Below are positions 1,639 through 59,549 of a DNA stretch of 64,000 nt, piece after piece. The notes below the pieces were generated by a model. That model did no database searches, was not told the DNA's origin, and worked only from the letters and a program-made list of their open reading frames with translations. The first letter of the stretch is position 1; each line of letters opens with the position of its first letter. Both the position numbers and the translations under genes were made by a program. The stretch lies in the IMG/VR virus record IMGVR_UViG_3300049830_000314, one strand, 5' to 3'. This stretch comes from a virus. Its lineage: Duplodnaviria; Heunggongvirae; Uroviricota; Caudoviricetes.

Positions 1639-1665
1639 CTTGGGTAGTATATCACATTTGTGAAG

Positions 1666-2358
1666 TTATGAGGAAAAATTGATTTCATATGGCATAGCTT
1701 GAAAAATAATACTTCCAGTCGTCTCTTCGCTCTTAGCTTTGATAATCTCCTCTGGACTCATAATCTCTTGAACATCATCCGCCTGGACGCCAGCGCTATA
1801 TGCAATCTGACACTGATATATTAATGCCTCGCCGTCACCGAATTCAAATAAAATATGATTTAATCTATCTTGACTCCATTTTACAACAACCTCTGACATT
1901 CCAAGCATCGAATCCACAAAATTTGGTTTATGTACTCCAACTCCTTTTTCCAAATAATTCATTAAACATTTAGACCACATAACGGTGTTGTTTGCATCAA
2001 TTGTTGGGCCTTCGCTTTCAATCTCAGATTTGATATTCGCCAAGCTCTCGGCAAGATTATCAAATTTAACCTTCTTGTATTTCATCAACATTACAGTGGA
2101 TGGCGCGAAGCACACATTGAGAGTTCCACGAGATTCATCACTTTTAACAAAATGAACATCAACATAGAATTGAACTGGTTCATTTTCTCTGTGAGACATA
2201 ATCATTTCCTTATTGTCGTCTCTAGCAACCTCTACCGTGACACTCATTAACTTTGATTTAGTCTCAAATTCGTCAACAGAATACATTCCACTTCCCCTTG
2301 GAATGTATTCCATTAATTCACTTGCGAGTTGAAAATATTCTGATGTAAGTTCCATCAA
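1666..2358 (-). CDS. hypothetical protein
   Basis: 230-aa ORF that tiles with its neighbours. Confidence 0.5.
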   Translation of the reverse strand: MMELTSEYFQLASELMEYIPRGSGMYSVDEFETKSKLMSVTVEVARDDNKEMIMSHRENEPVQFYVDVHFVKSDESRGTLNVCFAPSTVMLMKYKKVKFDNLAESLANIKSEIESEGPTIDANNTVMWSKCLMNYLEKGVGVHKPNFVDSMLGMSEVVVKWSQDRLNHILFEFGDGEALIYQCQIAYSAGVQADDVQEIMSPEEIIKAKSEETTGSIIFQAMPYEINFSS

Positions 2359-2370
2359 AATAATGATACC

Positions 2371-2895
2371 CTAAAAAGAGTTCCGAGCAGTAAATAATTG
2401 TGGTGAAAAAGTTGGAACTTGCGCAGGGGATAGCGTTTCTGCGTCATCCACCCAATATTGCAAATAATCAACCGATTCGCCAGTTTCATATAGATGCTTT
2501 AACCAAAGCCAGTCTGCATTAAACCAGTTAGAAATCCATTGTTGCAAATGACCGCACTCAATGGTGTGCAGCAGATTGAGTGCCATTTCTGAGGCTTGAC
2601 GCTCGTATGTGTAAATCCTGGTTAATTCTTCTGGTGTCTTCACCGAGCTGACATCCAGCCCAAGTTCTCGCAATTCAGAATCCACGTTCCACTGTACGCT
2701 GTGTCCGAATAAGTGCAAAAGCACATAAAACGCCTGTTCTATGGGTTGATTTTCTTCAATCCATATATTTAACCCATCAAACTCTCCTGTGTTGGGGTCT
2801 TTTACGTCACAGCGCGGGTGAACAATAAAACCGTGGGTTGCAATGGCGCTTTCCGCCTTTGCGTAAAGTTGTTCAAAATCTACTTTGGATTCCAT
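2371..2895 (-). CDS. hypothetical protein
   Basis: 174-aa ORF. Confidence 0.5.
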   Translation of the reverse strand: MESKVDFEQLYAKAESAIATHGFIVHPRCDVKDPNTGEFDGLNIWIEENQPIEQAFYVLLHLFGHSVQWNVDSELRELGLDVSSVKTPEELTRIYTYERQASEMALNLLHTIECGHLQQWISNWFNADWLWLKHLYETGESVDYLQYWVDDAETLSPAQVPTFSPQLFTARNSF

Positions 2896-2930
2896 AACAT
2901 CATATCCAAAGTAGATTTACTTTGAGGAAG

Positions 2931-3254
2931 TTATGCAATATGCTTGTTCAGAAGCTCTTCAATTTTTGATTTTTGAGCGTTGCCAGAAATTCTGTCAAGC
3001 AGCTTGCCTGCCTTAAACACCGCAAGTGTTGGTACTGCCATGATATGATACTCAGCGGCAAGTTTGTCGCTTTCGTCAATGTCCACTACAGCGAATTCTA
3101 CATCTGTTCGCTCTTTGGAAAGGGATTCGAGAGTGGGCTTGAGCGCCCTACATGGAGCACACCATTCTGCCCCAAAGTCCACCAGGACTATTTTTTCCGA
3201 CTTCAACACGTCGGCTTCAAATGAATTTGTTGTTACTTTTTTCATGATACTCAA
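2931..3254 (-). CDS. trx: thioredoxin
   Basis: 107 aa with the WCAPC active-site motif and a thioredoxin-fold length. TGgTATAAT lies 7 nt upstream of the ATG. Confidence 0.85.
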   Translation of the reverse strand: MSIMKKVTTNSFEADVLKSEKIVLVDFGAEWCAPCRALKPTLESLSKERTDVEFAVVDIDESDKLAAEYHIMAVPTLAVFKAGKLLDRISGNAQKSKIEELLNKHIA

Positions 3255-3364
3255 TTATACCAAGTGCAAGTGTCATATATCCTGCTGTTGAAAATCTTTT
3301 TTCAAAACTATTACCTGGTGGCAGGCTACACAGAGTGTATATAAGAAAAATACTATAACTTATC

Positions 3365-4675
3365 GTGAAAACCATTCTCGCACAATTGGATACTGCTATT
3401 ACCGAGCTAGAAGCAACTGGTAAATATCAAGATGCCAAAGAACTGCACGAAGTTTTTCTGCGCGTGGCTGCACTTGGCGATTTTAACCCAATGCATTATC
3501 TGAGCGAAGGGCTAAAAGGTGGAGTTTCTGGTGGTATGGCGTCTATGATGATGAGTGGCAATCCCGCTGGTGGCATGGTTAGCGGTGCTATTGGAGCTGG
3601 ATATGCGGCTGGACAAGATATTTATTACCACTTAATGAATAAAGCTAAGAAGACTCACGCTAAAGCTGGAGAGTTAAAGAAAACCTTAGAATCATTAATG
3701 ATGAGTCTTGAACATATTGAGCCTAATCTGGCTATGAATGTCAAGCAAAGAGCTGATTTAATTTACAATGCTGTCACCCAACAAGCTCAAACTGAGGCGC
3801 AACAGGCTCAGCAACAACTAGAAACGCAACCAAATCAGCCTACACAACAACCTATTACTGCGCCGCAATCATATTATCCGAATCAACCATCAGAAGCTTT
3901 GCAATTTGGTAATTTACAAACTATGCCAGATAGTATACAAAACACTTACGGATTGCCAACCATTCATGCCGAAACTCAAAAAGAGATTCGAAGACTTGCG
4001 GCATGGGATTGGAAAAACATGAAACAGAAGGCTCCGCAAATGTTGAAAAATCCTGGAAATTTAATACCCGAGACATTTCGAGAAAAAGTCAAAGATAATT
4101 TTTCTACAATTGGTAAAGATTTAGGTGCTGAATTAGTACACCTTGAACCAGAGAAACTCATGTCAAACTGGGGCGCTTCCTATGTTGTTGACAAAGTAAT
4201 GGAAAAAGTGTTTGAAAAGCTTTATCACACATATGTTTCTGTGAAGACGCAAGCTCAGATGGCTTTAAAGGAAATACCAAAAATCATAGAACACTTAACT
4301 CATCTAACTGCTAATAATCCAACGGTTCAGGGATTACTTGCTGAATTAAAACAAATCATCGCACAAGCTCATGAGACGATTCGTTCTTTCAATCCAAAAA
4401 CTATTGCTGAACAAAAAGCGAAACAACAGGCTGCTACATCTAATCCAAATCTTGACCCTTTAGAAAATTTACCACAAATGGGATTGAATCCAAATCTTCA
4501 GCCAATGGTTCACGCTGAATCTATCGGTCGAATGTGTCGAACTGCTTTCTTGGAATCTTTAGATGAAGTTATTGAAGAGCAAGAAGAATTTATTAGTGAA
4601 AGAAACGCAAATGAATTGCAAAGAGTATTCATCAGAATGTCTGACCAAGGATTTTTCACAGCTCGATGGATGTAA
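3365..4675 (+). CDS. hypothetical Gln/Ala-rich protein (GTG start)
   Basis: 436-aa plus-strand ORF, divergent from trx. Low-complexity Q/A/N-rich central region. Confidence 0.5.
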   Translation: MKTILAQLDTAITELEATGKYQDAKELHEVFLRVAALGDFNPMHYLSEGLKGGVSGGMASMMMSGNPAGGMVSGAIGAGYAAGQDIYYHLMNKAKKTHAKAGELKKTLESLMMSLEHIEPNLAMNVKQRADLIYNAVTQQAQTEAQQAQQQLETQPNQPTQQPITAPQSYYPNQPSEALQFGNLQTMPDSIQNTYGLPTIHAETQKEIRRLAAWDWKNMKQKAPQMLKNPGNLIPETFREKVKDNFSTIGKDLGAELVHLEPEKLMSNWGASYVVDKVMEKVFEKLYHTYVSVKTQAQMALKEIPKIIEHLTHLTANNPTVQGLLAELKQIIAQAHETIRSFNPKTIAEQKAKQQAATSNPNLDPLENLPQMGLNPNLQPMVHAESIGRMCRTAFLESLDEVIEEQEEFISERNANELQRVFIRMSDQGFFTARWM

Positions 4676-58472: not shown

Positions 58473-58629
58473 AAATTTTGATACAAACACTATTCAGTTT
58501 TCAATGTACTTGGCTTTCGCCCGTTAAAAATCTTTGTTGGAGATGAGCGGAAGCCTTGATTGCTGGCGTTATCTTAGCTGATTCCGCCCTCTCCTGTTTT
58601 CTTTCTTTTGGTTGCTTTTCATGATTAAA

Positions 58630-58668
58630 CTTAACAAAAAAGCCCGGTCTGATTTCTCAGACCGGGCT
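58630..58668 (-). terminator. rho-independent terminator (minus strand) upstream of the tRNA array
   Basis: The AGCCCGGTCTGA / TCAGACCGGGCT hairpin is followed on the minus strand by TTTTTTGTTAAG. Confidence 0.75.
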
Positions 58669-58689
58669 CTTATCTTTAGTGATTCTTTC

Positions 58690-58815
58690 TTAGTGGGTTA
58701 CACCGTAAATGTTAAGAGCTGGTCTGACGTTATGAGGCCATGGTTGTGGCTGAGGCTGCGGCGCGAAAGTGCCGAACTCTTCTTTTACCATATTTGCGTT
58801 CACGTCGAATAACAT
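58690..58815 (-). CDS. small ORF (41 aa, MLFDVNANMVKEEFGTFAPQPQPQPWPHNVRPALNIYGVTH), speculative
   Basis: AAAGGAAAC SD-like sequence before the ATG; bracketed by a sigma70-like promoter (58848-58898) and the terminator above. Confidence 0.3.
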   Translation of the reverse strand: MLFDVNANMVKEEFGTFAPQPQPQPWPHNVRPALNIYGVTH

Positions 58816-58847
58816 TTTAAATCAGTTTCCTTTGTTCTCTTCCACTA

Positions 58848-58898
58848 TTATAGCGGAACTTCCTATTTCTTGTCAACTACGTTTTGAGGATTTTTTGA
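58848..58898 (-). promoter_or_regulatory. sigma70-like promoter TTGACA-18-TATAAT with the TTTTGAGGA box abutting the -35
   Basis: Plus strand shows attata at 58848-58853 and tgtcaa at 58872-58877. Confidence 0.5.
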
Positions 58899-59549
58899 AG
58901 AAATGCCACTTTCGTCGGCTAAAGCTAAAAATTTCTCAATACGTTCTATCGTTCTTTGGTTCAAAAGCATATTCATGCATTCATCTGCAAGCTCAGTGCT
59001 TTCGCGTGTCTTCCCGCTGAGTATACCCTCGATTCCTGAGAGAGCAACGTTAATATCGTCATTTACGATTTGGTGGTCATAAAAATAAGAACACATGATT
59101 TCAGCGATAGCTGTGTCCATTCGCTCTTCAATCTTCTCTGGAGTGTCTGTTTTTCGCCCTTCTATACGCCTTCGCAACTCTTCAAGTGAAGGTGGAAGAA
59201 TGAAAATAGAAACAGCATCTGGCATTTTTGGAATCAACTCAATAGCGCCCTGAACATCTATTCTAATGATGGCAACATCACCAGCGGCAACAATTTCATC
59301 AACACTTGAGCGAGGCGTACCATAGATATTGCCAAACACATTCATATGCTCAAGAAATTCATTATTGGCAATCTTCGCTTTCATTTCTTCTATTGTGTAG
59401 AAATGATACGACACTCCATCGACTTCACCAGGTCTTGGCGCTCTTGTCGTGGCTGTAATAGCTCTTTTGATACGCGGGTTCGATTCCGCCCACATATCAA
59501 TAAGAGTGTCTTTACCAGCTCCAGATGGCCCGCTTAAGATTATTTTCAT
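58863..59549 (-). CDS. gmk: guanylate kinase
   Basis: ILSGPSGAGKDTL P-loop, ATTRAPRPGEVDGVSYHF, NVFGNIYGT, IDVQGA; 228 aa. Confidence 0.85.
   Translation of the reverse strand: MKIILSGPSGAGKDTLIDMWAESNPRIKRAITATTRAPRPGEVDGVSYHFYTIEEMKAKIANNEFLEHMNVFGNIYGTPRSSVDEIVAAGDVAIIRIDVQGAIELIPKMPDAVSIFILPPSLEELRRRIEGRKTDTPEKIEERMDTAIAEIMCSYFYDHQIVNDDINVALSGIEGILSGKTRESTELADECMNMLLNQRTIERIEKFLALADESGISSKNPQNVVDKK

Follow-up and report, generated by a model that had tools for sequence, protein, structure and literature searches.

The DNA analysed here, a stretch of 64,000 nucleotides from the virus record IMGVR_UViG_3300049830_000314 in IMG/VR (hereafter the window), has a G+C (GC) content of 41% and carries almost all of its genes on the minus strand. 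About 25 tRNA genes, grouped by amino acid, are present together with genes for Thg1, fragments of class I aminoacyl-tRNA synthetases (aaRS), a Ser/Thr kinase, and a PP2C phosphatase. Precomputed Pfam matches on identical public contigs add IF1-like, RF-1-domain, and formyltransferase-like proteins, an RNA ligase, a SpoU methylase, a ZIP transporter, and others. A short oriented sequence, referred to below as the box, recurs upstream of genes in the window, and the evidence supports it as a candidate promoter element that occupies the -35 position in a leaderless layout.

No DNA-level match to cultured phages was obtained with 20 kb of the window in a megablast search. Homologues of the TerD-like marker protein given below are encoded on many IMG/VR contigs of 200-500 kb, and a 161-kb contig is on record as encoding an identical small protein. 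Therefore, the window is most likely part of a large uncultivated phage.

23089-25185, minus strand: TerD family-like protein of 698 amino acids (aa), ~50% identity to many other bacteria

The nearest relatives of this protein are encoded by metagenome-assembled genomes of Armatimonadota (53-62% identity), which is the sole clue to a possible host and a weak one. The ZIP transporter gave no taxonomic signal toward a host.

A first-pass annotation of the window had proposed a conserved 14-nt box. The exact 14-mer, TTTTGAGGAAAATC, was found five times in the window (0 expected), and 18 copies were found when up to two mismatches were allowed, 16 of them on the plus strand (1.8 expected). The motif is thus real, oriented, and far above chance, but its invariant core, TCCTCAA on the gene (minus) strand, is shorter than 14 nt. 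This core occurs 27 times on the gene strand and three times on the plus strand, against 4.3 expected under an order-3 Markov model, and is the top over-represented 7-mer of the window, above the tRNA T-arm and GTATAAT. The flanks are informative as well, the consensus R-A-W-W-T-TCCTCAA-A-a-t holding approximately 12-13 informative bases. A real copy was located within ~15 nt of every position that the annotation had listed (22 of 22).

Non-coding DNA, which makes up ~25% of the window, contains 21 of the 27 gene-strand copies, and the remaining six lie in the final 20-40 nt of the upstream open reading frame (ORF). The copies are therefore mostly intergenic, as had been described, and the motif is not equally frequent in coding sequence. 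The single orientation claimed earlier holds for the great majority of copies but not for the plus-strand copy at 36153, which precedes a plus-strand gene (36189) with the same geometry. Therefore, the orientation of the box tracks the gene and not the strand. Another plus-strand match, at 15506, falls within a group I intron and is probably due to chance. Boxes were present at two of the three divergent junctions and at none of the three convergent ones.

In about half of the copies, a -10-like hexamer, frequently with TGn, follows the box after 16 nt (15-18), and an ATG comes 5 nt further on. The individual sites, read in the direction of the gene, are as follows.

138-173, minus strand: box TTTCCTCAT (165-173), 13 nt, TATACT (146-151), 5 nt, ATG then TAA; the box is the 3' arm of a palindrome (165-193), and the downstream gene runs off the window
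1636-1676, minus strand: box TTTCCTCAT, 16 nt, TGATATACT, 7 nt, ATG of 1150-1638
2893-2930, minus strand: box CTTCCTCAA, 15 nt, GATATG, 5 nt, ATG of 2371-2895
6995-7040, minus strand: box (7032-7040), 7 nt, TTGACA, 18 nt, GATAAT; consensus promoter of the tRNA-Phe cluster
10177-10217, minus strand: box TTTCCTCAA, 18 nt, TGCAATAAT, 5 nt, ATG of 9238-10179
11769-11807, minus strand: box TTTCCTCAA, 16 nt, TGGTATAAT, 5 nt, ATG of 10932-11771 (Clp_N)
13384-13422, minus strand: box ATTCCTCAA, 16 nt, CATATA, 5 nt, ATG of the aaRS-like gene 12049-13386
13827-13865, minus strand: box ATTCCTCAA, 16 nt, GCTAAT, 5 nt, ATG of 13422-13829; the upstream ORF contains the box in its 3' end
14835-14872, minus strand: box TTTCCTCAA, 16 nt, AATAAA, 4 nt, ATG of 14580-14837
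15235-15273, minus strand: box TTTCCTCAA, 16 nt, AATAAA, 5 nt, ATG of 14875-15237; abuts the 3' CCA of an intron-containing tRNA
17082-17125, minus strand: box (17117-17125), 5 nt, TTGACA, 18 nt, TAGAAT; consensus promoter of a small ORF and the tRNA-Leu cluster
17777-17814, minus strand: box ATTCCTCAA, 16 nt, GTAATA, 4 nt, ATG of 17396-17779
18133-18171, minus strand: box TTTCCTCAA, 16 nt, TGTAGA, 5 nt, ATG of 17800-18135
19692-19746, minus strand: box ATTCCTCAA, 16 nt to TATATT or 30 nt to TGGTACAAT, 7 nt, ATG of 18924-19694; ambiguous
21460-21504, minus strand: box (21496-21504), 7 nt, TTGACA, 17 nt, GATAAT; consensus promoter of the tRNA-Glu cluster
23051-23089, minus strand: box ATTCCTCAA, 16 nt, TGCTATACT, 5 nt, ATG of 22493-23053; kept in contigs L122 and L123
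25332-25393, minus strand: box (25385-25393), 23 nt, TTGACA, 18 nt, TACAAT; divergent intergenic region, facing the TerD-like gene 23089-25185
28831-28869, minus strand: box TGATTTTCCTCAA, 16 nt, TGTTATACT, 5 nt, ATG of 28480-28833
31445-31471, minus strand: box (31463-31471), 12 nt, TGGTATAAT; atypical spacing, and gene 30995-31396 would have a leader
35377-35385, minus strand: box located between the GOLLD RNA and a 12/12 consensus promoter (35431-35459) that precedes the box by ~40 nt
36113-36151, minus strand: box (36143-36151), 1 nt, TTGACG, 17 nt, TATAAT, leader with AAGGAG, gene 35505-35999
36151-36191, plus strand: box AATCCTCAA, 18 nt, TATAAT, 5 nt, ATG of the SpoU methylase gene 36189-36707
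42911-42950, minus strand: box ATTCCTCAA, 16 nt, GATATA, 6 nt, ATG of 42689-42913
43915-43952, minus strand: box AATCCTCAA, 17 nt, TGGTATGTT, 3 nt, ATG of 43663-43917
44982-45021, minus strand: box TTTCCTCAA, 16 nt, TATACT, 6 nt, in-frame GTG (44984); the ATG at 44957 is the start favoured by the gene caller
45969-45997, minus strand: TTGATT-TTCCTCAAAA...TATAAT with the box in the spacer (TTGATT to TATAAT, 17 bp); promoter of the tRNA-Tyr cluster
47012-47020, minus strand: box variant TTTCCTCAT ahead of a 9-codon ORF and gene 46110-46922; layout uncertain
53530-53558, minus strand: TTGATT-TTCCTCAAAA...TATAAT; promoter of the tRNA-His cluster, almost a duplicate of the Tyr one
56239-56247, minus strand: box adjoining tRNA-Pro 56249-56326 at its 3' end; not followed by a clear -10 or start
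58847-58892, minus strand: box (58884-58890), 7 nt, TTGACA, 18 nt, TATAAT (12/12); ahead of tRNA genes 57867-58470

The arrangement box-N25-29-ATG was found 17 times, compared with 1.95 expected from shuffles, and box-N15-18-TAnnnT-N4-8-ATG six times, compared with 0.12 expected. Downstream of the box, TAnnnT showed a sharp peak at an offset of 16 and a secondary one at 18, and ATG peaked at 26-29 nt, the position at which it was found for 17 of the 35 boxes in the window. When 70 boxes from six non-redundant sources were pooled, TAnnnT occurred at offset 16 in 15 and ATG at 26-29 in 34. The gene caller of the public assemblies had independently chosen 15 of the 17 ATGs in the box-N25-29 arrangement as starts. 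All 16 box-linked starts are ATG, and a plausible Shine-Dalgarno (SD) sequence precedes none of them.

At the approximately 16 box-linked promoters, no TTGACA-like hexamer was observed and TCCTCA stands in its position. When TCCTCA is taken as the hexamer, the spacer to the -10 is 17 bp, which is the optimum of the sigma-70 family, and this two-hexamer arrangement (17+/-1 bp) is the modal one. TGn precedes TATAAT or TATACT at 1668, 10209, 11799, 23081, and 28861. On the other hand, seven of the 16 box promoters have a poor -10 (AATAAA, GTAATA, GCTAAT, CATATA, TGTAGA, or GATATG), and the box therefore appears to contribute positively. Because only 5 nt separate the -10 and the ATG, transcription would be expected to start at the A of the ATG, and we infer that the box-linked mRNAs would be leaderless. 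The box in the -35 position, the sigma-70-type and often extended -10, the ATG 5-6 nt further on, and the lack of an SD sequence thus agree with the first-pass annotation. The leaderless layout that it had assigned to the whole set is enriched and conserved, but applies to only about half of the copies, and the -10 is poor in seven of approximately 16.

Among 82 called starts, TAnnnT peaked 5-6 nt upstream, and TGn-extended forms were found almost only at 5-7 nt. Approximately 40 of the 82 starts are of the leaderless type, approximately 17 have an SD sequence, and approximately 25 are coupled or unclassified; genes 35505-35999 and 39297-41468 have leaders with an SD sequence, as had been noted. 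The box is present at ~40% of the leaderless-type promoters. A second, box-less leaderless class, which had escaped the earlier annotation, has the form (A)TTG(A/T)GG-TAnnnT-N6-ATG (e.g., 7301, 37457, 49837, 50922, and 55731), and plain extended -10 leaderless cases were seen at 3245, 38976, 44601, and 53046.

Oriented boxes in the same layout, box-16(15-18)-(-10)-5-ATG, were found on five further contigs, whose mean aa identity to the window (tblastx) was 69% for L122, 61% for L346, 54% for L123 (GC, 47.5%), 54% for L376 (GC, 44%), and 52% for L280 (GC, 36%). In the orthologous regions of these contigs, conservation extends over the box, the -10, and the gene from its ATG, whereas the spacers have diverged. 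The best three-way footprint (window, L122, and L123) is that at 28831-28869, which is also present in L346 and L376. The box linked to GOLLD (35377-35385) is conserved in L122, L346, and L376, and the promoter of the IF1-like gene in L376 reads box-16-TATAAT-7-ATG. Five oriented boxes were also found on L333, which comes from the same assembly as L346 and does not overlap it. The promoter of the 164-aa gene (35505-35999) reads box-1-TTGACG/T-17/18-TATAAT in the window and L123, whereas in L376 it reads box-16-TATAAT without a -35. Therefore, the box and a canonical -35 seem to be interchangeable in evolution.

No enrichment of the box was detected in 68 other huge-phage loci that share the 698-aa marker (identity of 56% or less) and were collected by an alignment-based IMG/VR search with it, or in 51 sampled bacterial loci, including 16 of Armatimonadota. 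The leaderless signature was carried by 21% of the ORFs in the window, compared with 2-4% in these 68 huge-phage and 51 bacterial loci. A single-protein IMG/VR search with the same marker found no relatives. When 241 million metagenome records were scanned for TTTCCTCAA-N16-TATAMT-N5-ATG, 95 loci were returned, which is about the chance level, and among the loci inspected, multiple oriented boxes in promoter layout occurred only in L346 and L333. An IMG/VR scan with the 14-mer GATTTTCCTCAAAA gave more than 120 single chance matches and was uninformative. In L278/L279, a more distant phage, the box is absent and the TTGnGG-TAnnnT-N6-ATG style is present; since no more than 6-8% of their sequence has a match in the window, their designation as a sister clade was downgraded. 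These comparisons support the confinement of the box to one clade of large phages among the loci sampled, in line with the phage-specific character proposed for it earlier.

Eight near-perfect TTGACA-17/18-TATAAT promoters were found on the gene strand. They face four tRNA clusters (Phe, Leu, Glu, and Pro/other), GOLLD, and three protein genes (promoters at 36141, 37151, and 25361), with long leaders and AAGGAG at 36141 and 37151. The presence of these consensus promoters suggests a host primary sigma factor with ordinary -35 specificity, and box-type promoters would therefore need something else. The box lies 1-23 bp upstream of the -35 in six of the eight. The copies adjoining TTGACA at 7032, 21496, and 58884 are as the first-pass annotation described them, and 17117 can be added; the association of boxes with consensus promoters that mostly drive tRNA clusters had not been recorded. 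The promoters of the tRNA-Tyr and tRNA-His clusters take their -35-like hexamer, TTGATT, from the left part of the extended box, and the box core then falls in the spacer. This Tyr/His pair and the Phe/Glu/58884 set are paralogous promoters. Recent duplication of a promoter cassette was rejected as a general origin of the boxes because the spacers are unrelated.

The palindrome TTGAGGAAAATCCTCAA reported between divergent promoters is present at 36143-36159 and consists of a plus-strand box and a minus-strand box. A dimeric activator had been deduced from it; this did not hold up, since the two opposed single boxes each serve their own divergent gene and the other sites are single and asymmetric.

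Based on these observations, we propose that the box is the -35-position element of a clade-specific class of leaderless promoters that is read by a phage sigma factor or adaptor, and we consider this mechanism as a whole moderately probable. Motif enrichment, orientation, position, geometry, and conservation are observed directly in the DNA; the start sites, the reading factor, and any temporal class are deduced from them. The -10 (TAnnnT, often TGn-extended) would be read by a sigma-70-family holoenzyme, and the hexamer TCCTCA, 17 bp upstream of it, would replace TTGACA and be recognized by something other than region 4 of the host primary sigma factor. A phage-specific factor is plausible in this role, the likeliest candidates being a phage-encoded sigma factor or a sigma-4-replacing adaptor that would resemble MotA/AsiA in logic only. 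Transcription would begin at, or within one base of, the A of the ATG, 5-6 nt past the -10 and 27 nt past the box. The mRNAs, having neither a 5' untranslated region (UTR) nor an SD sequence, would be translated by the leaderless (5'-AUG/70S) route. The TTGACA-17-TATAAT promoters would in turn be host-sigma promoters, mostly driving tRNA clusters and GOLLD.

Several points weigh against this proposal. Sigma factors, MotA, AsiA, and helix-turn-helix (HTH) proteins were not found among the approximately 82 proteins of the window in Pfam and PHROGs scans, so that the sigma-appropriation or activator gene that the first-pass annotation had suggested looking for elsewhere in the genome did not appear among them. 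About half of the boxes lie outside the canonical geometry: those at 7032, 17117, 21496, and 58884 sit 5-7 bp upstream of perfect -35/-10 promoters, those at 36143 and 25385 sit 1 and 23 bp upstream of consensus -35s, others fall between the two hexamers of the tRNA-Tyr and tRNA-His promoters, and one follows the GOLLD promoter at a distance of ~40 nt. A role purely as a -35 surrogate cannot account for these positions. It may be speculated that each such box sets a second start ~27 nt downstream, which would give tandem host-type and box-type promoters.

The search for a reader of the box was extended to the ten largest ORFs of L333, in which sigma (sigma70_r2/r4), MotA, AsiA, and HTH domains were likewise not found. 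The 164-aa gene product beside the palindrome showed only a weak DPBB match. The 109-aa early protein encoded at 36708-37037 lies behind a consensus promoter with a strong SD sequence, and its family comprises only nine clusters among 5.8 billion sequences; this clade-restricted protein was confidently modelled as a TPR-like five-helix repeat (predicted local distance difference test [pLDDT], 92.8), with structural matches that were only generic. According to the model it could be a protein-protein adaptor, and nothing ties it to the box. For a conserved basic 117-aa protein, no usable model was obtained (pLDDT, 44).

A broader and rather doubtful proposal is that the clade has moved most non-structural expression to leaderless mRNAs by means of a private promoter code, a TCCTCA '-35' read by a phage sigma factor or adaptor, so that transcription and translation are taken over jointly, with phage 5'-AUG mRNAs favoured and host SD-led mRNAs out-competed. 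Genes for IF1-like, formyltransferase-like, and RF-like proteins and for dozens of divergent tRNAs are present in these phages as well.

The many single asymmetric copies in short intergenic regions, co-oriented with transcription, would also suit a dispersed operator to which a phage repressor or roadblock protein binds, silencing promoters or read-through at many sites. The variable position of the box relative to canonical promoters (upstream of the -35, within the spacer, and downstream of the GOLLD promoter) fits such an operator better than it fits a -35 surrogate. The sharp spacing seen at half of the sites (-10 at 16 nt and ATG at 27 nt) speaks against it, and seven of the 16 promoters, with neither a -35 nor a good -10, could not fire without a positive element. 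In addition, the box and a canonical -35 interchange at an orthologous promoter, and no repressor or integrase was seen in the window. We therefore regard an operator as unlikely.

Recognition by a host factor was also considered, in which the box would be the -35 of a host alternative sigma factor or the site of a host activator and the leaderless style would mirror that of the host. Such a reader counts against the phage-factor proposal, although we judge it improbable. Leaderless -10-adjacent layouts with TGnGnTAnnnT-type extended -10s are typical of Actinobacteria and Deinococcus-Thermus, this type of extended -10 being that of Corynebacterium. The leaderless style, though not the box, is found in the more distant phage L278, and no phage factor was found in the window. 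However, the box is limited to a narrow clade of phages and was missing from the related ones that were sampled, the composite promoter occurs at about the chance level in the metagenome records, with clustered oriented boxes only in L346 and L333 among the loci inspected, and the loci of Armatimonadota, the sole candidate host phylum, show neither the box nor the leaderless signature.

A stop codon or the CCA end of a tRNA directly abuts the box at many sites (TAA-TTCCTCAA, TGA-TTTTCCTCAA), as would be expected if the box acted at the RNA level as a termination, processing, or stability signal of the upstream gene. This abutment was attributed to genome compaction. The perfect 29-bp palindrome at 165-193, ATGAGGAAAGTTCTTAGAACTTTCCTCAT, consists of two back-to-back boxes and forms a 13-bp hairpin (z = -6.6) just after gene 214-1122; it looks like a terminator that reuses the box and is the only strong hairpin among the box sites. 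No general hairpin was found at the box (mean z = -0.49, with z below -2 at only four of 31 sites), and terminator-like sites were not significantly above shuffles in any of three segments, the 1-20 kb segment lying ~2 standard deviations above. An intrinsic terminator or hairpin role was therefore rejected, site 165 excepted, for want of a general G+C-rich hairpin with a U-tract. Boxes also occur in divergent regions without a gene end (25385 and 36143/36153) and at no convergent junction, and their distance to the downstream ATG is far too constant for a 3'-end signal, which makes such a signal very unlikely.

Least probable of all is an architectural or UP-like element (T-tract, CCTC, A-tract) that bends DNA or binds the alpha C-terminal domain (alpha-CTD) and gives a position-independent boost. 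T and A runs do flank the box, and it lies at about -43 to -51, the usual UP position, at four consensus tRNA promoters. Unlike a UP element, however, the box has an invariant CCTC core and a strict orientation, and at leaderless promoters the box occupies -34 to -28, the site of sigma region 4 or an adaptor and not of alpha-CTD.

Two readings of the plus-strand text were rejected as well. The box is not a plus-strand SD sequence (GAGGA), because the genes are on the minus strand and no plus-strand ORF starts after it. Nor is it a sigma-H-like or SPO1-like -35 on that strand, because no -10 follows (judged by eye at a few sites) and the orientation is wrong.

If the -35-position element read by a phage factor is correct, an uncultivated lineage of large phages would have a compact and portable promoter code (box, 16 nt, -10, 5 nt, ATG), and gene starts and operons could be better annotated in such genomes, where standard callers assume an SD sequence. 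The window would represent a second independent large phage, after phiYS40, that relies on leaderless mRNAs, with the addition of a defined upstream specificity element. The link between phage translation factors or tRNAs and leaderless translation would become testable. The box would also predict a sigma-4-type or adaptor protein and could become an orthogonal transcription part, and the motif would serve as a sequence tag for recruiting more members of the clade from metagenomes.

Other features of the window and of the related contigs are described here in their own right. The tRNA clusters are located as follows.

6564-6811: Phe x3
16453-16870: Leu x5
20839-21342: Glu x4-5
45511-45775: Tyr x3
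53225-53388: His x2
56249-58470: Pro x4-5

The tRNAs inside one cluster have the same or nearly the same anticodon and yet are only 50-72% identical, and CCA is encoded in nearly all of them; such redundant sets of divergent isoacceptors are unusual among phages. Cognate-looking enzyme fragments lie nearby, with tRNA-synt_1c (19958-20824) beside the Glu cluster, and Thg1 (48788-49837) and the class I aaRS fragment (12049-13386) are also near tRNA clusters. Two tRNA-like genes on the minus strand, 20922-20992 and 58396-58470, scored 48.7 and 49.7 bits with Rfam, and the two-base 'anticodons' given by ARAGORN (tt and cc) suggest odd anticodon loops. The group I intron at 15347-15538 (minus strand; Rfam, 55 bits) interrupts a tRNA that ARAGORN did not call and whose 3' half has CCACCA as its terminal sequence, at ~15276. 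GOLLD RNA was located at 34450-34916 (minus strand; Rfam, 154 bits) and contains an embedded tRNA-like element, called 'SeC tca' by ARAGORN, at 34774-34848. Two basic Cys-rich proteins of ~184 aa (5962-6516 and 56335-56886, minus strand) show HNH-like motifs by eye (HH...N...H; CxxC pairs) and both adjoin tRNA clusters; the protein at 56335-56886 has no Pfam match, and for that at 5962-6516 none is on record. A set of translation and RNA genes (8648-9238, 10237-10869, 27467-27751, 27761-28480, and 36189-36707) includes those for a formyltransferase N-domain, an RF-1 domain protein, an IF1-like protein (eIF-1a fold), the RNA ligase, and the SpoU methylase.

Selfish elements are frequent in the box-carrying clade. 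L280 has two IS605-family elements (3196-4757 and 18093-19292; Y1 transposase and TnpB/Cas12f-like), LAGLIDADG genes occur in L123 and L376, and L333 has an intein-containing PcfJ-like gene. In the more distant L278, a CRISPR-like array at 15175-15857 contains 12 copies of a ~36-nt repeat (CCTGGATATACCAGTCAAATTAGATGTAAACACAC) with unique spacers of ~30 nt.

The stoperators of mycobacteriophage L5 and the C1 operators of phage P1 are negatively acting sites whose distance to a -10 or start codon is not fixed. They resemble the box in being approximately 25-30 asymmetric intergenic sites of 13-17 bp that are co-oriented with transcription; half of the sites described here, unlike them, have promoter geometry, with weak -10s that would need activation. 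The gp28 promoters of SPO1 have AGGAGA as the -35 and TTTnTTT as the -10. A novel phage-specific -35 hexamer at sigma-type spacing is common to both systems, whereas the -10 here is host-like (TATAAT), so that only the -35 differs, and no sigma gene was found in the scans of the window and L333.

In Actinobacteria and Deinococcus-Thermus, the leaderless organization in which the -10 region is adjacent to ORFs is the 'group C' of GeneMarkS-2. The window shares with it a Pribnow box 5-8 nt from the start and first genes without an SD sequence, internal genes being SD-led or coupled. Group C is, however, a genome-wide habit of cells with an ordinary or absent -35, in contrast to the phage and clade-specific box described here, and it was not seen in the candidate-host loci sampled.

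Among large phages, phiKZ showed no leaderless transcripts and AR9 has UTRs of 26-491 nt. In Thermus phage phiYS40, the middle and late transcripts are mostly leaderless, as Sevostyanova et al. reportedly found in 2007 (J Mol Biol 366:420). In Thermus phage P23-45, gp39 switches transcription away from -35 promoters to extended -10 late promoters (PMC4124052). The resemblance to phiYS40 and P23-45 is that of a large phage in which the later promoters, having no -35, depend on the -10 or its extended form. The window differs from both in having a conserved upstream box at ~40% of the promoters of leaderless type and a mesophile-like GC content.

The parallel drawn by the first-pass annotation was with T4 middle promoters, in which an asymmetric 9-bp MotA box, (a/t)3TGCTTtA, replaces the -35 and is centred at -30, 12+/-1 bp from the -10; these promoters need an excellent -10, and about half carry TGn (PMC2988021, PMC6755090). 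The parallel holds in its logic: a phage-specific asymmetric 9-bp box stands in for the -35 ahead of a host-type -10, about half of the -10s carry TGn, and dozens of copies suited to a monomer-type recogniser exist alongside strong consensus early promoters. No MotA/AsiA homologue was found among the window proteins scanned. In its details the parallel fails. The box is TTTCCTCAA and not (a/t)3TGCTTtA, many -10s are weak where T4 requires excellent ones, and the transcripts appear to be leaderless. Furthermore, the spacing to the -10 is 16 nt (15-18), or 17 bp for TCCTCA, with the box centred at approximately -32, in contrast to 12+/-1 bp and -30 in T4. This 17-bp geometry would make the box more like a true sigma-family -35 than a MotA box.

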